Positions 18,911 to 42,907 of a stretch of DNA of 64,000 nt are shown here, piece after piece. The translations under genes and the position numbers were made by a program. The stretch is from Treponema sp. TIM-1. GTDB taxonomy: Bacteria > Spirochaetota > Spirochaetia > Treponematales > Breznakiellaceae. Numbering within the stretch: the stretch's first letter is position 1; each line of letters begins with the position of its first letter. Under the pieces are notes generated by a model that was not told the DNA's origin, ran no database searches, and saw only the letters and a program-made list of their open reading frames with translations. The stretch covers positions 43,708 to 107,707 of the forward strand of contig NZ_JAJQRC010000002.1 of NCBI RefSeq assembly GCF_046533115.1. The letters are read 5' to 3'.

Positions 18911-19837
18911 TTAATCCACATACTCCAGGGGAAAAACCGACCGATCCCGGGAGAGGACCGTATTGGGAAAAATATCCCGGGCTTCCTGCAGTAGCGTCTT
19001 AAGGTTGTATTCATTGTACCGGGGGCTGTAATGGATCAGGGCGAGCTTTTTTACCCCCGCGGCAGCGGCGATTTGGGCGGCCTGTTCCGCGGTCATGTGT
19101 TTTTTTTCCCGGGCGCTTTCTTCCAGCTCTTTTTCAAACATTCCCTCGCAGACAAAAAAATCCGAACCCGCCACCTCGGCGGCAATCTCAGGAAAAGCCA
19201 GGGTATCGGTCACAAAGGAAAATTTTCTTCCTGAACGGGATTCCCCCAGTACCTGATCAGGGAATACCTCGGAGCCGTCCGCGGCCCGGACAGACTCCCC
19301 GGCCTGAAGCCTGGACCAAAGGGGACCCCGGGGAACCCCCAATGCCATGGCTTTTTCGGGGTGGAATTCCCCGGGGCGGCGGTTTTCTTCAAATACATAA
19401 CCCATACAGGGTTTGGTATGCCTCAAAAGAAAAGCCCGTACCTGAAAGTCCTCCCCGGTATATACTATTCCGGGAGAATTTATTTCCTTAACCACGATTT
19501 CATAGTTGATATACATATCCAGGGTACGGCGATTGGTTTCAATATATTCGGCGATTCCCCGGGGACCGATGATGTATAGGGGATCGTCCCGGTCCACTTG
19601 GGAGGAAAGCATCAGGATTCCCGGAATACCCGTCACATGATCCGCGTGGAGGTGGCTTACAAAGATAACGGAAATTTTCTTCCACCGGAGGTTTAACCGG
19701 CGCAGGGAAACCTGGGTCCCCTCCCCTCCATCAAAGAGGAAAAGCTCCCCTTCCCGCCGGAGTAGGACCGAAGTTAAGTGCCGGTTGGGCAGGGGCATCA
19801 TGCCCCCGCAGCCGAGGATAAAGGCTTCCAGGTTCAT
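18911..19837 (-). CDS. rnz: Ribonuclease Z (MBL fold, short form)
   Basis: HxHxDH motif VSHLHADHVTG. The N-terminus FILGCGGMMPLPNRHLTSVLL is typical of the ElaC family. 308 aa. Confidence 0.75.
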   Translation of the reverse strand: MNLEAFILGCGGMMPLPNRHLTSVLLRREGELFLFDGGEGTQVSLRRLNLRWKKISVIFVSHLHADHVTGIPGILMLSSQVDRDDPLYIIGPRGIAEYIETNRRTLDMYINYEIVVKEINSPGIVYTGEDFQVRAFLLRHTKPCMGYVFEENRRPGEFHPEKAMALGVPRGPLWSRLQAGESVRAADGSEVFPDQVLGESRSGRKFSFVTDTLAFPEIAAEVAGSDFFVCEGMFEKELEESAREKKHMTAEQAAQIAAAAGVKKLALIHYSPRYNEYNLKTLLQEARDIFPNTVLSRDRSVFPLEYVD

Positions 19838-20877
19838 CGTTTTTTTATACTCCGTAAAAATTTCCGCAGGGACTCAGCAACGGTAAAAAGGCTTTTCCTT
19901 GCCCCTCGGTAAGTATAATCCCAGCTTCCACTCCGGTGGATAATCCGGCCCCCAAAACCGGTCTTAAACCGGTATAGTCCCGCCATGGGATGGGTGGGGT
20001 CCTCCCGGGGAGGGATGCCGTAAAGGTCATATTCCATACAGCCGGCGGCCCGGGCATCCTGCATAGCCCGCCATTGCAGGGCGTAGGGAGCCATAAGATT
20101 CCGCTTTTGATTGGAAGAGGCTCCATAGAGGTAGACCGCCTCAGGGCCCCGGAAGAGCACGATGCTACCGGCGATGGGGACCCCTTCGTGGGAGGCCAGA
20201 TAAAGACGGAACTCCTGGGCGGATTTTTCCCGGGAACAGACAAAAAGGGTCTTATAGTATTCCGGACCGTGGATGGCGATACCGTCCCGTTTTGCCGTTT
20301 CCCGGTAGAGGGCATAAAAAACATCCAGATCCTGCTCGTCCCGGCGATCCACCACGACCCCCTTCTTTGCCGCAAGGCCGATGTTGTAACGCCACTTGGG
20401 TTTCATTCCCCCCAGGAGCTCTTCTTCGGAAGCCGCAAGGCCCATAATCACCGTATCCGGCGGCTGGACATCCATTCCCGCCCGGGAAAAGGGGGGATCT
20501 ATCCGGGGAGGAGCGGTTTCGGCCCCTTCGGTATACCAGGGGGGATCAAAGCGGATAAAAGCCGTATTTCCGGGCAAGAGGGACCGTAAAGCCTGGGCTA
20601 GCTCCTTGAGGGCGCCGTTTCGGGCCCCGTCATCGGTAGGAAAGGCCGGGGGCAGTTCCGGCCCCCAGGGAACATAAGCGAAGGAAAGAGCCGGCGCCAG
20701 GGGCCGCCAGAGGATCAGGAGGGACAGAGCTTCCGCCCCGGCCCAATCCGCCAGAAAAGCCCGGGCCGTCCAACCGAACCGGGCCTTGAAGTCCCCCCAA
20801 AAGTCTGACTGGAGGAAAGAGCCTGCTTTCCCACAGCAGGATAGCTCGGCGGGAATGATACCGCGAAGATATCGCAT
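19834..20877 (-). CDS. FemAB family peptidoglycan bridge-forming aminoacyltransferase
   Basis: LFRGPEAVYLYGASSNQKRNLMAPYALQWRAMQDARAAGCMEYDLYGIP is a FemAB family block. The first 30 codons of the six-frame ORF (to 20967) read through two repeat copies. The probable start is the ATG at 20877, giving MRYLRG... Confidence 0.6.
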   Translation of the reverse strand: MRYLRGIIPAELSCCGKAGSFLQSDFWGDFKARFGWTARAFLADWAGAEALSLLILWRPLAPALSFAYVPWGPELPPAFPTDDGARNGALKELAQALRSLLPGNTAFIRFDPPWYTEGAETAPPRIDPPFSRAGMDVQPPDTVIMGLAASEEELLGGMKPKWRYNIGLAAKKGVVVDRRDEQDLDVFYALYRETAKRDGIAIHGPEYYKTLFVCSREKSAQEFRLYLASHEGVPIAGSIVLFRGPEAVYLYGASSNQKRNLMAPYALQWRAMQDARAAGCMEYDLYGIPPREDPTHPMAGLYRFKTGFGGRIIHRSGSWDYTYRGARKSLFTVAESLRKFLRSIKKR

Positions 20878-20890
20878 GGGGACAGAGCTC
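20878..20890 (+). repeat. GGGGACAGAGCTC repeat copy
   Basis: Exact 13-mer. First of two tandem copies, each within about 26 bp of conserved context GCATGGGGACAGAGCTC(A/G)ACTTGG. Confidence 0.8.
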
Positions 20891-20909
20891 AACTTGGAGG
20901 AGGCTGCAT

Positions 20910-20922
20910 GGGGACAGAGCTC
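20910..20922 (+). repeat. GGGGACAGAGCTC repeat copy
   Basis: Exact 13-mer. Second tandem copy, 32 bp after the first. Confidence 0.8.
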
Positions 20923-20966
20923 GACTTGGGAACTCAGATTGGGGATAGATTGTCCATTGGCAATCA

Positions 20967-23240
20967 TTAATGCACCTCGCCGGCGCCGATTACCTTAGTA
21001 TGGATGGGATTTCCCTGAAGGGTGAGAGCTCTGTCCCCAACGGTTACTTCATGGCTTACTACCTTGATAGGAATGGAGAAAAAGATATCGATATCTATCT
21101 CGGCAGGAGGTGTTCCGACGGGCAGACCTTGGATCTGTACCTGGGTACCGGTAGGGGTATCCCCCGCGTCGAGGACCTCCACCCGTTCATTACCCTCGGC
21201 ATCCTTATCGGAAGCTGCCAGGAGCATACCCCGGCTTTCCACTCCCCGGAGTTTTGCGGTTTTCAGGTTATAGGCGAGGATGATATGTTTACCCAAAAGC
21301 TCCTCTTCTTTATAAAAGGGGACAAGACCGGAGACGATAATCCGTTCCTCTCCGGCGATTTCCAAGGTTTCGATGTAAAGCTTGTCCGCCTTGGGATGCC
21401 GTTCGATTTTTACGATCCGGGCAACCCTGAGGTCCAGGGTTTGGATAAAACGATCCGGGGCCGGGAGGGTCTTTTCCGGGGGCGTATTCCCTGACACCGC
21501 CGGGGTATCTTCTGGTTTAGCGGCTTCCCGATCCATCCTATCCTTCTGACTGCCGGAATACCGTTCCCGCAGGTCCCGTACCAGGTCATCCTCTAAGCGG
21601 GGGAAAAGGACCTCACTTTTTTCAACCCTCAATAGTCCACCCTCCTGACCGATATCCTTCCAGGAAAGAATTTTTTCCTGGGCAGAACCCTGAGGCCCAA
21701 TGGCAAGACCAAAAAAGGATGCGATCTTCTCGGCGGCGGTGGGAATATAGGGATGGATCATCACCGCAATATCCCGAACCACATGGCAAAGATCCCGGAT
21801 GAGGACCGCCGCGGCCGGAGGATCCTCCGTCCGTTTCTTCCAGGGTTCACCATCCTGGAAGGTTTTATTAGCAAATGAGGATAATTCAAAGACGGTCCTG
21901 AAGGCATCCCGGAGTTCCGCCCGCTCCAGCTTTGCAGTAATATCGGCCTCGAAATTCCGCACCCGTTCCCAAAATGCCGGATTTCCGGGTTCACTGGGGA
22001 TCATCCCGTCATAATACCGGGTTACAAAGGAAAGGGTACGGTTCACCAGGTTCCCCAGATTACCGATCAACTCGCCGTTTACCTTCTCCTGAAAATCCTT
22101 CCAGGTAAAAAGGGCATCTGCCTTCTCCGGACGGTTATAAAATATATAAAAACGCCAAATATCCGTACCTATACCGGTATCCATGACATCGGTACCAAAA
22201 ACCCCCATTCCCTTGGATTTGGAAAATTTCCCCCCTTCGTAGTTCAGATATTCGGTACTGGACATGTGGTGCAGCATGGTCCAATTTTCCCCGGTTCCCA
22301 GAAGGCTTGAGGGAAAAATAACGGTATGGAAGGGAATATTGTCCTTACCAATGAACTGAAAGAGTTCCACCTGCCCGGGATTTTTCCACCAATCATCAAC
22401 AAAACAACGCCAGTCCCCGGTGGTCTCCGCCCCGTAATTTCCGGTGATGGAAATATATCCGATACAGGCATCGAACCAAACATAAAAAACCTTATTTTCA
22501 TACCCCACTTTGGGAACCGGGATGCCCCATTTCAGATCCCGGGTGATGGCCCGTTCCCGAAGGCCGTTACGGATCCAGGAATGGGTCATCTGCAAAGCGT
22601 TATTTGCCCAAAAGCCCTTGACCGAAGCATCCTTAAGCCATTCCTCAAGGCGATCCTTTAGCTGTGGGAGATCAATATAGAGATGTTTGGTTGATTTGAG
22701 TACCGGCTCAGAACCGCAGCTTGAACACCGGGGGGCCTTCAATTCCGTGGGGTCCAGAAGCTTACCGCAAACCTCGCACTGATCCCCCCGGGCATCCGGG
22801 GATCCGCAGTAGGGACAGATACCTCGGACATAACGATCCGCTAAAAACCTATCACAGTGGGCACAGTGAAGCTGCTCTATGGTACGCTCCACAATGAACC
22901 CATGGGCATCCAACTTTTTGAAGATATCCTGCACAATTTCGGTCTGAATCGGCGTTGTGGTCCGGCCGAATTTATCAAAGTTGATATTGAACCAACGATA
23001 AATGTCCGCATGGATAGCATAATAACGGTCACATAATTCCTGGGGGCTCACCCCTTCTTCGGCGGCCCTGGTTTCCGTGGCGGTACCGTATTCGTCGGTT
23101 CCACATATATAAAGAGTATCGTAGCCCCTGAGTCGGCAAAACCGGGCAAAGGCATCGGCAGACAGAACCTGGATAAGGTTCCCTAGATGGGGTACATTGT
23201 TTACATAGGGTAACGCAGAGGTTATTAATCTTCGTTTCAT
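20967..23240 (-). CDS. metG: Methionine--tRNA ligase with a C-terminal EMAP/Trbp111-like tRNA-binding domain
   Basis: HIGH-type motif PYVNNVPHLGNL, zinc knuckles and KMSKS. The C-terminus LRVARIVKIERHPKADKLYIETL is an OB-fold tRNA-binding domain. Confidence 0.9.
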   Translation of the reverse strand: MKRRLITSALPYVNNVPHLGNLIQVLSADAFARFCRLRGYDTLYICGTDEYGTATETRAAEEGVSPQELCDRYYAIHADIYRWFNINFDKFGRTTTPIQTEIVQDIFKKLDAHGFIVERTIEQLHCAHCDRFLADRYVRGICPYCGSPDARGDQCEVCGKLLDPTELKAPRCSSCGSEPVLKSTKHLYIDLPQLKDRLEEWLKDASVKGFWANNALQMTHSWIRNGLRERAITRDLKWGIPVPKVGYENKVFYVWFDACIGYISITGNYGAETTGDWRCFVDDWWKNPGQVELFQFIGKDNIPFHTVIFPSSLLGTGENWTMLHHMSSTEYLNYEGGKFSKSKGMGVFGTDVMDTGIGTDIWRFYIFYNRPEKADALFTWKDFQEKVNGELIGNLGNLVNRTLSFVTRYYDGMIPSEPGNPAFWERVRNFEADITAKLERAELRDAFRTVFELSSFANKTFQDGEPWKKRTEDPPAAAVLIRDLCHVVRDIAVMIHPYIPTAAEKIASFFGLAIGPQGSAQEKILSWKDIGQEGGLLRVEKSEVLFPRLEDDLVRDLRERYSGSQKDRMDREAAKPEDTPAVSGNTPPEKTLPAPDRFIQTLDLRVARIVKIERHPKADKLYIETLEIAGEERIIVSGLVPFYKEEELLGKHIILAYNLKTAKLRGVESRGMLLAASDKDAEGNERVEVLDAGDTPTGTQVQIQGLPVGTPPAEIDIDIFFSIPIKVVSHEVTVGDRALTLQGNPIHTKVIGAGEVH
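21025..21037 (-). repeat. GGGGACAGAGCTC repeat copy, inverted
   Basis: The plus strand reads GAGCTCTGTCCCC. It lies inside the last 25 codons of metG, encoding ...VGDRAL..., and is inverted relative to the two copies at 20878 and 20910. Confidence 0.8.
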
Positions 23241-23269
23241 ATTAGATCACTATAAAAAGGCGATACCGC

Positions 23270-23863
23270 TTAGTCAAGGTAAGGAAAAGGACCGGGCTTA
23301 GCTTTCTCCCGGAGCATTTCTGTGTAATACCGGGGTTCGATCCGGTCTTTTTTGATGCCGATTTTGTGGAGCAGCTCCAAAAGACGGAACCTGGCGGCTG
23401 TTACGGCTTCATTCGTATCATTATCGGTGATGATTTCCAGCTCTACAAACCAGCCGAGGCCTTCTACCTCGGTTAGCTCCGTGGTAATGCCCTCGCAGAT
23501 CCAGGCCCAGCCCCGTTTGTTTTTTTCTATACCCTTCTCAAGCCCCAGCCGGCGGAGTAACTCTTCAAAAGCAGTGTCATCGGATACTGAAAATTCCCGC
23601 TCATCGTTTATTTCTATACCCTCCCGGATCTCCTTGACCTTATAGGTTACCCACAAAGCGTGAGAAACCCTTCCGTCAGGATCGGTTTTGGTTTCCCGGC
23701 GGATCCGTACCCCTGATAGGGGGACAGAGCTGCCGGTCCCGGTAATAAACCAATAGGAATCCGCTTTCTCAAAGGATGTTTCAAGTCCGGCAAAGGAAAA
23801 AAGTCGGGCCCGTAAACCATCCGGATCATCCACCCAGGCTTTTAATTCTATTTCGATGGACAT
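23270..23863 (-). CDS. CYTH domain protein (class IV adenylate cyclase/triphosphatase-like)
   Basis: The N-terminus MSIEIELKAW...RIRRE carries the CYTH ExExK motif. 197 aa. Confidence 0.6.
   Translation of the reverse strand: MSIEIELKAWVDDPDGLRARLFSFAGLETSFEKADSYWFITGTGSSVPLSGVRIRRETKTDPDGRVSHALWVTYKVKEIREGIEINDEREFSVSDDTAFEELLRRLGLEKGIEKNKRGWAWICEGITTELTEVEGLGWFVELEIITDNDTNEAVTAARFRLLELLHKIGIKKDRIEPRYYTEMLREKAKPGPFPYLD
23720..23732 (+). repeat. GGGGACAGAGCTG repeat copy
   Basis: 12/13 match. It lies inside the CYTH gene on the opposite strand. Confidence 0.7.
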
Positions 23864-33051: not shown

Positions 33052-33063
33052 GGGGACAGAGCT
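33052..33063 (+). repeat. GGGGACAGAGCT repeat copy flanking the transposase (upstream side)
   Basis: Intergenic, about 90 bp upstream of the Y1 transposase ATG. It is preceded by a partial duplicate GGGACA. Confidence 0.75.
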
Positions 33064-33153: not shown

Positions 33154-33654
33154 ATGAGACATCCAAGAAAACTTAAGGATAACGCCACTTATCATGTGAC
33201 GGTCCGGGCAAACCGGAGGGAGATGGTTCTTTTTTGTACGGCTATGCGGATTTTGTTCCTCAATGTGGTAAAACGGGCAAAAAAGAAATATAAATTCCAA
33301 ATAGACAATTTTTCTATCATGGGAAATCATGTTCACCTTATTATTCGGCCGGGAAAGGATGAATCCTTATCCCGTATCATGCAATGGATATTAAGTGTCT
33401 TTGCTATGGCATGGAACCGAGCCCACTTTCAGACCGGTCATGTATGGGGAGAACGATTTTTTTCCAAGATCATCAATGATTGTATCGAATTTATCAAAAC
33501 ATTTCATTACATTTCGCAAAATCCGGTAAAGGCCCAATTAGTCAAAAGTCCTGAAGAATGGGAATTTGGAGGACTCTGGCATTTTATTTCAGGGAAAAAA
33601 GAAATAATTGGGGAACCCGCATCATGGATCCAAGAGATATATCGGAATTATTGA
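33154..33654 (+). mobile_element. IS200-like Y1 (HuH) tyrosine transposase, probably a REP-associated RAYT
   Basis: 166 aa with the HuH motif GNHVHLIIRP. The downstream HFQTGHVWGERFF block fits the IS200/RAYT family. The gene is low in GC and is flanked by inverted copies of GGGGACAGAGCT at 33052 and 33681. Confidence 0.6.
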
Positions 33655-33680: not shown

Positions 33681-33692
33681 CAGCTCTGTCCC
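33681..33692 (-). repeat. GGGACAGAGCTG repeat copy flanking the transposase (downstream side, inverted)
   Basis: 11/12 match, 27 bp after the transposase stop. Confidence 0.65.
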
Positions 33693-33700
33693 TCTAGATA

Positions 33701-35062
33701 CTAATTTTTGAAGCTATGGAGAGGGGCAGGTATCCTGCCGCCCCGGGCGATAAAGGAGTCGCTTTTCGCCCTGTTTACCGCCATAATGGGAGTACCCCCT
33801 AAAAGGCCGCCGAATTCCGCCCATTCCCCGGCTTTTTTACCCGGCACCGGAATGACCCGTACCGCGGTGGTCTTATTGTTCACCATCCCGATGGCCATTT
33901 CATCGGCAATGATCGCCGAAATCGTTGCGGTGGAGGTATCCCCCGGAAGGGCAATCATATCCAGTCCCACCGAGCAGACCGAGGTCATAGCTTCTAATTT
34001 ATCCATGCTTATAGAACCGGCTCTCACCGCCGCGACCATACCTTCATCCTCCGAAACCGGTATGAACGCCCCGGAAAATCCTCCCACATGGGTCGAGGCC
34101 ATAACCCCCCCCTTTTTTACCATATCCGTCAGCATGGCCAGGGCCGCGGTAGTTCCGTGGGTTCCCGCCGACTCAAGGCCCATCTCTTCCAGGATCCGGG
34201 CTACCGAATCCCCTACCGCGGGGGTAGGGGCCAGGGAAAGATCCAATATTCCGAAGGGAACCCCTAACCGTTTGGCCGCTTCCATCCCTACCAGTTGACC
34301 CATACGGGTAATCTTGAAGGCCGTTTTTTTGATAATATCCGCCAGTTCATCAAAATTTGCGTCCCGATGCCTTTCCAGGGCGGCCTTCACCACCCCGGGA
34401 CCGGAAACACCCACATTAAGGCATGCCTCCCCTTCCCCGACCCCATGAAAGGCCCCGGCCATAAAGGGATTATCCTCCGGCGCGTTACAGAAAACCACTA
34501 ACTTCGCACAGGCGATCCCATCCGTGCCGGCGGTTTTTTCCGCGGCGGCCTTGATCACCTCTCCCATGCGGCGGACCGCGTCCATGTTGATACCGCTTTT
34601 CGTACTAGCCACATTTACCGACGCGCAAACCCGTTCCGTAAGGGACAGAGCTTCAGGAATCGAATCAATAAGCCGTCTGTCCCCCTGGCAAAAGCCCTTT
34701 TGTACTAGGGCAGAGAACCCCCCGACAAAGTCAATACCCAGTTCCTTGGCGACCTCATCCAGGACCACCGCATAGGGGGTATAATCTTCGTCCCCGGAAG
34801 AACCGGCAATAAGGGCCATGGGGGTAACCGAAAGACGCTTATTGATAATGGGGATACCGTATTCGACCTCTATCTGCCGGCCCGTCTGAACCAGGGATCC
34901 CGCCGTCTTAAGGAGTTTTTCCCGGATTCTCCTCCGGGTCTCCCCGCCGGACGCGGAAGCGCAATCCAGTAGGGATACCCCCAGGGTAATGGCCCGGATA
35001 TCCAGTTTGTACCGCAGGAACATATCCACGGTCTCTTTTATTTCAAATGGGGTAAATAACAT
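33701..35062 (-). CDS. UPF0210 (DUF711, PFL-like) family protein
   Basis: The N-terminus [34 protein letters not shown] is the hallmark start of UPF0210. 453 aa. Paired with the upstream ACT protein. Confidence 0.7.
34642..34652 (+). repeat. GGGACAGAGCT(T) repeat copy
   Basis: 11-mer core inside the UPF0210 gene, encoding ...EALSL... on the opposite strand. Confidence 0.55.
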
Positions 35063-41972: not shown

Positions 41973-42907
41973 TGTCTAAAATAACGAAGACTCCCCTATC
42001 CGAAGTCCCCTACCGCTACTTTAAAGAATTTATTGCCCCGGAAACGGATAGGTTTGCCTTTCTGAGCGCCCTGCTGGATAAATTGGGCCTACGGCGATCG
42101 ACCCTTACCATTGCAGGAAACCGGCATTTTATGGTTTTCCCACCTCACGAGGGACAGAGCTCGCCGAAAGGTCAGAAAGGCCAGGCCTTCCAAGCGAGCT
42201 CTGTCCCCATTGTGCTGGTTGCCCATTATGACCGGGCAGCGGACAGCCCCGGTGCGAACGATAACAGCGCCGCGGTATTTCTTCTTATAGAAACAGCCAT
42301 GAAACTATGGCAAAAAAAAGGTAAGAACTGGCTTATTATCTTTACCGACAAAGAGGAATTAACCCAAGACGAGGGAATCAAAAGTCAGGGATCCTATACG
42401 CTGGCCATGGGATTACGGCAAGCCGGTCTTGGAAGGGGACGATTTTTCATATTCGATGCCTGCGGTACCGGGGATACCCTTATTATTTCCACCACCGCCG
42501 ATCACCTGATGAAAAACGAAAAAGGGCTGGGGATAATAAAAACAAGGCAGGCGGTACAGCAGCTGAGAAACTTGGCCCTGGAAACAACCCGGGAACTTCA
42601 GATGGATAAGGTGCTGCTCTTGCCAACCCCCTTTTCCGATGACGCGGGTTTTTTACGGGCGGGAATACCCGCCCAGACCATCACGGTACTCCCCGGTAAG
42701 GAAGCGAGCCCCTTTATTTCCCTCCTGCGGAACAACTCCGGCCTTGACCAGGCTCTGGTAAACCGGGAGATACAGAAAAATTATGACCGACGTTTAATCC
42801 CCGAAACATGGCGCTGCCTTAACGGCCCCGGGGATAGTTACCCCCGGCTTACCCCGGAACATTTTTCCCAGGTGGTACGTTTTGCCTGTGCTTTGAGTAA
42901 AAAATGA
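41972..42907 (+). CDS. M28-like peptidase family protein carrying an in-frame palindromic insertion
   Basis: LVAHYDRAADSPGANDNSAAVFLLIE and DDAGFLRAGIP resemble the M28 zinc-ligand blocks. Codons about 59 to 79 (HEGQSSPKGQKGQAFQASSVP) are encoded by a 62-bp perfect inverted repeat containing the GGGACAGAGCTCG motif. Confidence 0.5.
   Translation: MSKITKTPLSEVPYRYFKEFIAPETDRFAFLSALLDKLGLRRSTLTIAGNRHFMVFPPHEGQSSPKGQKGQAFQASSVPIVLVAHYDRAADSPGANDNSAAVFLLIETAMKLWQKKGKNWLIIFTDKEELTQDEGIKSQGSYTLAMGLRQAGLGRGRFFIFDACGTGDTLIISTTADHLMKNEKGLGIIKTRQAVQQLRNLALETTRELQMDKVLLLPTPFSDDAGFLRAGIPAQTITVLPGKEASPFISLLRNNSGLDQALVNREIQKNYDRRLIPETWRCLNGPGDSYPRLTPEHFSQVVRFACALSKK
42151..42208. repeat. Perfect inverted pair GGGACAGAGCTCG ... 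CGAGCTCTGTCCC (13-bp arms, 31-bp loop) inside the M28-like gene
   Basis: Arms lie at 42151-42163 and 42195-42207. The loop ccgaaaggtcagaAAGGCCaGGCCTTccaag contains a nested palindrome. The whole element is in frame with the host ORF. Confidence 0.8.

Follow-up and report, generated by a model that had tools for sequence, protein, structure and literature searches.

The closest described relatives of the repeats reported here are the REPs (repetitive extragenic palindromes) and REPINs that accompany genes for RAYTs (REP-associated tyrosine transposases), such as the REP and BIME sequences of E. coli and the REPINs of Pseudomonas. Work on RAYTs has dealt almost entirely with extragenic palindromes in Proteobacteria, the surveys having counted 16-mers in extragenic DNA and having found abundant repeats only for RAYT groups 2 and 3 (PMC5581495). 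REPs carry GTAG or CGTC tags, and intragenic REPs are known as a minority that arise as insertions of whole palindromes (PMC3733652). How RAYTs and their repeats are related, and why hosts keep RAYTs, is an open question in the field; the RAYT literature that we searched does not cover the Spirochaetota and holds no description of spirochaete RAYT repeats. Here we describe a cluster of short repeats at the junction between metG and a femX-like gene of Treponema sp. TIM-1, together with a dispersed word to which these repeats belong and a RAYT gene 12 kb away. The readable sequence of this organism is a 64-kb stretch, referred to as the window, and all window counts refer to it. We regard the cluster as an instance of a probable RAYT-repeat system and not as a dedicated regulatory element.

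Repeats at the junction and a dispersed word near a RAYT gene

The preliminary description of this DNA had noted three repeat copies, two in tandem and one inverted, at the end of metG and the beginning of the neighbouring gene. A repeat search of the window confirms all three as exact copies of a 14-mer, TGGGGACAGAGCTC, far beyond chance: they are located at 20877-20890 and 20909-20922 on the plus strand and, as the reverse complement, at 21026-21039, and when up to 2 mismatches are allowed the window holds 10 matches against 0.36 expected, a number that 0 of 100 shuffles reached. The direct copies sit in a longer unit (20874-20897 and 20906-20929) that recurs with a period of 32 nt, and the conserved context attributed to them therefore exists, although it is 24 nt with 1 mismatch and not 26 bp. 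The inverted arms are also real, but they are 14 nt long, not 13, and are separated by 103 nt or 135 nt, not by about 90. Two features had been overlooked, a core copy at 20721-20731 and a degenerate unit at 20939-20949. The features of the junction are as follows.

19834-20967, minus strand: femX-like gene (FemAB family), 377 aa from ATG 20967; PF02388 and PF13480 are found on homologues
20967-23240, minus strand: metG, methionyl-tRNA synthetase with a C-terminal tRNA-binding domain, 757 aa; orthologues carry PF09334, PF19303 and PF01588
20965-20978, minus strand: translational-coupling junction, with Shine-Dalgarno sequence GAGGTG at 20978-20973, a 5-nt spacer and TAATG
21026-21039, minus strand: motif copy, 5' arm of the predicted hairpin; TGGGGACAGAGCTC on the minus (sense) strand, inside metG
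20906-20929, plus strand: tandem unit B, 24 nt, holding the motif copy 20909-20922; the mRNA reads CCAAGTCGAGCTCTGTCCCCATGC and encodes part of the femX linker (..QVELCPHA..)
20874-20897, plus strand: tandem unit C, 24 nt, holding the motif copy 20877-20890; encodes ..KLSSVPMR.. and includes ATG 20877-20875
20939-20949, plus strand: degenerate third tandem unit TTGGGGATAGA, overlapping the conserved G-Q-S-I-P codons; 91% complementary to 21030-21040
20721-20731, plus strand: fourth core copy GGGACAGAGCT, 11 nt, inside femX (..AEALSLL..)

The inverted copy, previously placed within the last 25 codons of metG, lies inside the last 24, where it covers the codons G-D-R-A-L, 19-24 codons ahead of the stop (20969-20967), and is spelled GGG-GAC-AGA-GCT-CTC. 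AGA accounts for 6% of the Arg codons and GCT for 9% of the Ala codons in the window, and the rarity of both indicates that this copy has a cause at the DNA level. The orthologous metG sites read GGGGACCGCCCGC (L001) and GGGGATAAAGCGC (L002), and neither differs by an indel. The same copy forms part of a near-palindrome, GGGTGAGAGCTCTGTCCC (21020-21037), in which it abuts a degenerate inverted copy and shares AGCT with it; a perfect version, GGGACAGAGCTCTGTCCC, is present in two other loci, L016 and L020.

The 14-mer contains an 11-nt core, GGGACAGAGCT, that is dispersed well beyond the junction. It occurs exactly 14 times in the window, where about 0.03 occurrences would be expected, and is the most repeated 11-mer there, the commonest unrelated 11-mer occurring 6 times. 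Copies are found in all three frames and in both orientations with unrelated flanks, and 12 of the 14 are inside open reading frames (ORFs), among them metG, the femX-like gene and ORFs for CYTH, Band-7 and DUF711 proteins, for a kinase and for an M28 peptidase. The only inverted mates within about 105 nt are those of the 42151/42197 pair and of the long-spaced 20911/21027 pair, and a degenerate partner at 34642. Spirochaete loci totalling 222 kb, which were chosen by the motif such that motif densities in them are biased upward, contain 122 exact copies and only 36 copies with one mismatch. A purine precedes the core in 119 of these 122 copies while the other flanking positions are random, and we define the word as the 12-mer R-GGGACAGAGCT. 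The conserved unit is therefore 12 nt long, with sharp edges and no internal dyad.

To these we add the following features of the window, which include the RAYT gene and the copies that flank it.

33154-33654, plus strand: RAYT gene, 166 aa (NCBIfam NF047646, Y1_Tnp, 4ER8)
33053-33063, plus strand: sense-oriented motif copy, 101 nt ahead of the RAYT gene
33682-33692, minus strand: inverted motif copy, 28 nt past the RAYT stop and flanking the gene
23721-23731, plus strand: motif copy in the CYTH-domain gene, exact core
26600 (minus), 26742 (minus), 32233 (plus), 34642 (plus) and 41256 (plus): other single copies, exact core
42151-42207, no strand assigned: inverted doublet of 11 + 35 + 11 nt inside the M28-peptidase-like gene; both copies are conserved in an orthologue (L010)

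The RAYT gene is assigned on several measures: its product scores 92.9 bits against NCBIfam NF047646 (cut-off 80) and 5e-15 against Pfam Y1_Tnp, its only PDB match is E. coli TnpArep (4ER8), with HxH and Y-I-x-x-N-P-V aligned, and it retains an intact HUH motif (HVH) and catalytic Tyr (HYISQNPV). NCBI gives the same name. The gene has a GC content of 39% compared with 52% for the window. All 14 window copies of the word lie between -12.4 and +8.5 kb from this gene (20721-42207), and there are none in the other 42 kb.

Loci from other genomes show the same association. RAYT homologues with 45-59% identity are encoded in 6 loci that had been fetched by the motif pair alone, and in motif-fetched loci a sense copy is generally positioned about 60-190 nt (mostly 60-110) upstream of the RAYT gene, with the exceptions of L048, which has near-copies matching at 10/11 nt, and L029, which has none. 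Counting all ten RAYT loci, exact upstream copies are present in seven (the window, L003, L042, L014, L012, L053 and L056), variant or 10/11 copies in two (L048 and L054), and none in L029. The copy downstream of RAYT is not always inverted, being direct in L003.

Further loci were obtained independently of the motif. Three of about 20 kb were fetched by the RAYT protein, namely those of T. primitia ZAS-2 (L053), B. homolactica (L054; CP067089, 2473342-2493845) and a metagenomic contig of 65% GC (L056); others were fetched by the FemX protein, among them 9 kb from B. homolactica (L052) and 13.5 kb from T. primitia (L055). The T. primitia RAYT locus has 17 exact copies in 20.5 kb, one of them 72 nt upstream of RAYT, and the metagenomic contig has 21 copies of GGGACAGAG, 15 of which end in CT. 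In B. homolactica there are 17 copies of GGGACAGAG, mainly as GGGACAGAGTA (10) and GGGACAGAGCA (4), compared with the Treponema form GGGACAGAGCT; the GGGACAGAGTA(A) copies are mostly intergenic and the GGGACAGAGCA copies mostly in genes, and an inverted pair is situated just upstream of the RAYT gene. About half of the copies at the T. primitia and Breznakiella RAYT loci are inside called genes. No copies were found in the FemX-fetched loci of B. homolactica or T. primitia, both of which are remote from the RAYT gene of their species (1.8 Mb in B. homolactica). In T. primitia, an intergenic tandem array with a 21-nt period (L053 2411-2568) separates divergent genes and comprises six exact copies and two with one mismatch.

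The RAYT gene has the same neighbours in T. primitia and Breznakiella, namely aspS and chromate-transporter genes, and given this synteny it is probably inherited vertically. Copies of the word occupy orthologous codons in the two genera, both in aspS (L053 8694 and L054 8664) and in an OmpA-family gene (L053 10924 and L054 13625), and these genes are only 71-74% identical between the genera. The T. primitia OmpA-family gene also contains an in-frame 30-nt tandem duplication that carries the motif. The local concentration of copies suggests that they spread or are maintained in cis. From their co-location with RAYT, and from the precedent of E. coli TnpArep, we infer that the word is the cognate repeat of this RAYT.

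The wider distribution of the word was examined by scanning 185,579 species genomes (596 Gb) for the inverted pair GGGACAGAGCT-N8-38-AGCTCTGTCCC, which gave 47 stretches, 27 of them from about 19 Spirochaetota genomes ranging from 30% to 68% GC. The spirochaete loci also contain dispersed copies of the word, L042 having 13 in 8 kb, whereas those from other phyla have the seed pair alone. The spirochaete family includes inverted doublets with 8-38-nt spacers, some of which resemble terminators downstream of genes, and tandem units carrying the word recur in other genomes with periods of 21 to about 48 nt. At the 42151-42207 doublet, which spans 19 codons, the arms are identical in the orthologous locus from Ncb351_bin73 (L010 4730-4786) while the 35-nt spacer is about 71% identical, compared with about 93% for the whole aligned segment; this doublet may be an in-frame REPIN-like insertion.

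Two other accounts of the word were considered and rejected. A sequencing adaptor or assembly artefact does not fit with the preservation of frames in conserved genes or with copies shared by orthologous loci. An element common to many phyla (Acidobacteriota, Omnitrophota, Bacillota, Desulfofustis and others) does not fit with the presence there of only the seed pair and of no RAYT homologue, and given the 596 Gb searched these matches are probably unrelated long hairpins. Eight of the loci (L004, L009, L015, L022, L026, L032, L033 and L041, from three metagenome-assembled genomes of Acidobacteriota) hold a family of perfect palindromes of about 80 nt, with outer arms CTTTTCCACAG...CTGTGGAAAAG that resemble DnaA boxes and an inner stem that includes GGGACAGAGCT; these eight loci contain no extra copies of the word and no RAYT homologue. 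Loci from Omnitrophota (L005, L037 and L046) and Desulfofustis (L017, L023 and L039), and also L019, L031, L011 and L024, have long hairpins with GGGACAGAGCT in the stem, flanked by variable yet complementary extensions, and are probably chance matches. The literature searched makes no mention of the word itself.

The metG-femX gene pair and the femX start codon

The preliminary description had placed the tandem copies in a leader and apparent N-terminal extension of the femX-like gene, and had preferred a start at ATG 20877 to the one at 20967, which was thought to over-extend the protein. That the start is ambiguous is evident from the NCBI call (P0001), which begins at ATG 20877 and gives a protein of 347 aa. 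We fetched six orthologous metG-femX junctions and compared them with that of TIM-1, seven genomes in all. The femX-like protein matches a protein of Treponema sp. TIM-1 with 100% identity; its closest relatives are metagenomic proteins (P0002-P0004; 76-79% identical), and those of B. homolactica and T. primitia are more distant.

In TIM-1 the metG stop (20969-20967) overlaps the femX ATG (20967-20965) within the sequence TAATG, and in 7/7 genomes the final base of the metG stop codon is shared with the femX start codon, as TAATG, TAGTG or TGATG. An invariant GAGGT is positioned 5 nt ahead of this start in 7/7 genomes, encoded by the conserved C-terminus of metG (G-E-V-H/G). The N-terminus that follows, M-x-x-(P/N/R)-G-Q, is common to FemX proteins from TIM-1 (MIANGQSIP) through Breznakiella (MAGPGQ). 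Between it and a conserved Y-L-R-G, the TIM-1 clade has an additional linker of 22-24 codons, rich in Pro, Ser and Ala. The sequence of the linker is poorly conserved, and its lengths in four genomes (96, 96, 102 and 87 nt) are all multiples of three; frame 0 is free of stops in 4/4 genomes, and the other frames have 8 stops in 8 readings. ATG 20877, by comparison, is found in TIM-1 alone, within the repeat unit CCCCATGC, and has no Shine-Dalgarno sequence.

These comparisons support 20967 as the start of femX, and the NCBI call and the earlier preference for 20877 are probably both wrong. On the same alignments metG and femX are not separated by any leader, and the two tandem copies fall within the coding sequence of the predicted femX linker. 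The preliminary description had suggested that orthologues be compared for an N-terminus of 30 aa encoded by the repeats, which it held would speak against its own view; the orthologues share the existence of the extension, its start, the first 9 residues and the frame, and do not share the repeat-encoded residues. The public calls of femX-like genes start at three different internal codons, an ATG (window 20875-20877), a TTG (L002 5001) and a GTG (L050 3097), each of them further downstream than the conserved start at the metG stop. The femX-like gene is probably annotated about 30 codons too short in TIM-1, L002 and L050, systematically within the clade.

By the overlap of stop and start, the Shine-Dalgarno sequence inside metG, and the conservation of both, metG and femX are a translationally coupled pair. 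Coupling through an overlapping stop and start is well known, for example at the UGAUG of trpB-trpA. The likeness here extends to the TAATG and to a Shine-Dalgarno sequence within the upstream gene, in seven genomes, with no difference that we could discern. The overlap junction is ordinary, and is a property of the gene pair and not of the repeats.

The period of the tandem repeat (32 nt) is not a multiple of 3, and slippage of one unit would shift the frame of the long femX, while ATG 20877 would stay in frame with the core of the enzyme; an on/off or long/short switch is conceivable, although this is purely speculative.

Readings of the junction cluster

We think it probable that the junction copies are RAYT-cognate repeats that are tolerated in permissive coding positions, and that the hairpin they could form is a by-product. 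In this family of spirochaete genomes RAYT would drive or maintain copies locally, and the word makes up a cloud of about 0.7-1 copy per kb over some 10 kb to each side of the RAYT gene. Within the cloud it is found as inverted doublets of REP size, in short tandem arrays, and as lone half-sites that may be intragenic. The junction of metG and femX, 12 kb from RAYT, is at the edge of this cloud. One copy would have been fitted into the C-terminus of metG by means of rare synonymous or conservative codons, and two reside in a 32-nt tandem duplication within the poorly constrained N-terminal linker of femX. Because metG and femX overlap and are coupled, all of the junction copies fall in translated sequence; the 14-bp complementarity would then be an incidental result of motif accumulation, the helix would be kept melted by ribosomes translating metG, and any effect on femX expression or mRNA decay would be secondary.

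Several observations weigh against this account. Classical REPs are extragenic palindromes that spread by insertion, and most of the window copies are non-palindromic singletons. There is no indel relative to relatives at metG, at femX 20721 or at the CYTH copy (23721), and substitution therefore either created these copies or eroded them in the relatives; plain transposition fails to explain such indel-free coding copies. The age of the junction copies is ambiguous by parsimony over four taxa, in which the metG codon is AGA, CGC, AAA and AAG. That RAYT binds or cleaves the word is presumed from co-location and from the TnpArep precedent, and the concentration of copies near RAYT is drawn from one 64-kb window, three 20-kb RAYT loci and two distant loci. 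Finally, the predicted helix is very stable and buries AUG 20877, and may have an effect at the level of the mRNA.

A bolder interpretation, which we put forward only tentatively, is that spirochaete RAYTs represent an undescribed REP mode. A 12-nt half-site, R-GGGACAGAG plus a lineage-specific dinucleotide, would be written or maintained over about 10 kb around RAYT, essential genes included, via short tandem duplications and indel-free, conversion-like replacement of near-cognate sequence. Copies would persist at orthologous codons across genera, and the metG-femX cluster would be the footprint of cis-acting, RAYT-dependent editing or conversion.

The preliminary description had proposed instead that the repeats form a long-range hairpin on the minus-strand mRNA, acting as a stabiliser, a terminator or an attenuator. 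That such a hairpin could form is borne out by the predicted fold. In the minus-strand RNA the metG arm is predicted to pair with the distal copy, unit C providing the 3' arm of the minimum-free-energy (MFE) fold, at -71.4 kcal/mol (z = -4.4; 0/200 shuffles as stable), and the duplex between arm and target has -35.1 kcal/mol (z = -6.0); the MFE fold extends the pairing across AUG 20877, which is thereby buried. The metG arm might pair with one downstream copy to make a decay barrier, a stabiliser, an RNase III site or an attenuator that sets the femX:metG ratio, with alternative 3' arms exposing or burying AUG 20877. There is precedent in the REP hairpins of E. coli operons, such as that at malE-malF, which stabilise the upstream mRNA and alter relative expression. 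More generally, many REPs act as RNA elements according to Di Nocera et al. (PMC3733652).

We nevertheless regard a regulatory helix as unlikely, and the three repeats are probably not a regulatory hairpin between genes. The equivalent pairing is insignificant in six relatives (z of -1.4, -0.7, +1.4, -1.7 and 0.0; range -1.7 to +1.4), and RNAalifold on the seven junctions yields -1.1 kcal/mol with no compensatory pairs and no conserved structure. The presence of three copies of one word close together accounts for pairing that is specific to TIM-1. Both arms are in the translated sequence of coupled genes, where ribosomes would unwind the helix; the arm itself is a dispersed word, linked to RAYT and found in every frame and orientation; and AUG 20877 is neither conserved nor provided with a ribosome-binding site. 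A terminator or attenuator role is likewise unsupported, given a loop of 103 or 135 nt, overlapping genes with no untranslated spacer, and the lack of a U-tract after either 3' arm, the tails being AUGCAGCC and AUGCGAUA. No terminator-like tail or promoter-like site was found at the junction, and a terminator or promoter there was rejected; two weak terminator-like matches inside femX are at chance level. Nor does the region resemble a conserved cis-regulatory RNA, as there is no conserved or covarying pairing and no match to a known family: Rfam returned nothing, either in an E-value scan of 19500-23600 or in a gathering-threshold scan of the whole window and nine loci.

Two further structures were considered and discarded. 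A conserved local hairpin over the femX ribosome-binding site and AUG appears only in the fold of a single sequence, with the RNAalifold value given above and no covariation. An apparent compensatory change in L002 (GCTC/GAGC to GCGC/GCGC) is set aside because shuffled sequences give duplexes as good as that of L002 (z = -0.7).

The word could instead be a signal of the DNA-uptake type, or another genome-wide DNA-level signal produced by biased uptake and recombination, of which the junction would be a dense patch. This would be in keeping with a sharp 12-mer whose exact copies far outnumber near-exact ones, with its occurrence in both orientations and all frames within genes, with terminator-like inverted pairs downstream of genes, and with copies that arise by substitution from near-cognate sequence. 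Uptake sequences would be expected at a roughly even density throughout the genome, independent of any mobile-element gene. The word is not evenly spread: 42 kb of the window and the femX loci of B. homolactica and T. primitia have 0 copies, as against 17-21 per 20 kb at RAYT loci. RAYT is consistently flanked by the word, the variant form of which changes with the RAYT orthologue, and the literature searched holds no spirochaete uptake sequences. On account of the local distribution and the RAYT-flanking copies we consider this explanation quite improbable.

Least credible of all is an ordinary local 32-nt tandem duplication combined with a chance inverted match, for although the tandem units share 24 nt, more than the 12-nt word, and a local duplication or gene conversion must therefore have occurred, the number of exact copies, 14 within the window plus 122 in other spirochaete loci, excludes chance as the source of the match.

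These findings have consequences beyond this locus. For annotation, the femX-like gene is probably some 30 codons longer than in public calls, and its apparent leader does not exist. Methods based on extragenic 16-mers would overlook a RAYT family that has a 12-nt half-site as its cognate word, and the spirochaete word is present in coding sequence, clustered near RAYT, in lineage variants, and at orthologous codons conserved between genera. The cultured T. primitia and B. homolactica offer tractable systems in which to study cis action by RAYT, and conversion as opposed to insertion.

Comparison with known systems

The word resembles the DNA uptake sequences (DUS) of Neisseria and the uptake signal sequences (USS) of the Pasteurellaceae in being a 10-12-nt word, present in all frames and orientations with exact copies dominant, and in having inverted pairs at gene ends and lineage variant forms. 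It differs from them in its link to RAYT and in its local distribution, and no uptake machinery is implicated.

Intragenic REPs and the palindromic elements of Rickettsia (PMC3733652) are similar in being repeats tolerated in frame within functional genes, tRNA synthetase genes among them, where they often occupy linkers or N-terminal regions. This pattern is matched by the copies in the femX linker and by the OmpA-family duplication of 30 nt in T. primitia. The described elements are, however, a minority and consist of whole palindromes of 20-150 nt, whereas half-sites dominate here and the metG copy is a substitution at the level of codons.

The closest likeness is to the REP/REPIN-RAYT systems of E. 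coli (REP/BIME with TnpArep, 4ER8) and Pseudomonas (REPINs). Common to both are a single-copy Y1/HUH gene of the RAYT equivalog family, which is flanked by inverted copies of the most over-represented short repeat; inverted doublets with 8-38-nt spacers that make REP-sized hairpins; and a syntenic RAYT, probably vertically inherited, with a repeat sequence that co-varies with the RAYT orthologue. The spirochaete unit is set apart as a 12-nt non-palindromic half-site, not an imperfect palindrome of 20-40 nt, and by having only a purine at -1 in place of a GTAG or CGTC tag. Classical REPs are extragenic, whereas 12/14 window copies are inside genes, mostly as singletons, and several coding copies are free of indels relative to orthologues. 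The copies also appear to be concentrated about 10 kb either side of RAYT and not spread genome-wide. The repeat, which is not palindromic, not extragenic and without a tag, falls outside the classical definition, but the system to which it belongs has the defining RAYT features, from the gene itself and its flanking inverted repeats to strong over-representation, REP-sized doublets, probable vertical inheritance and co-variation of repeat and RAYT.

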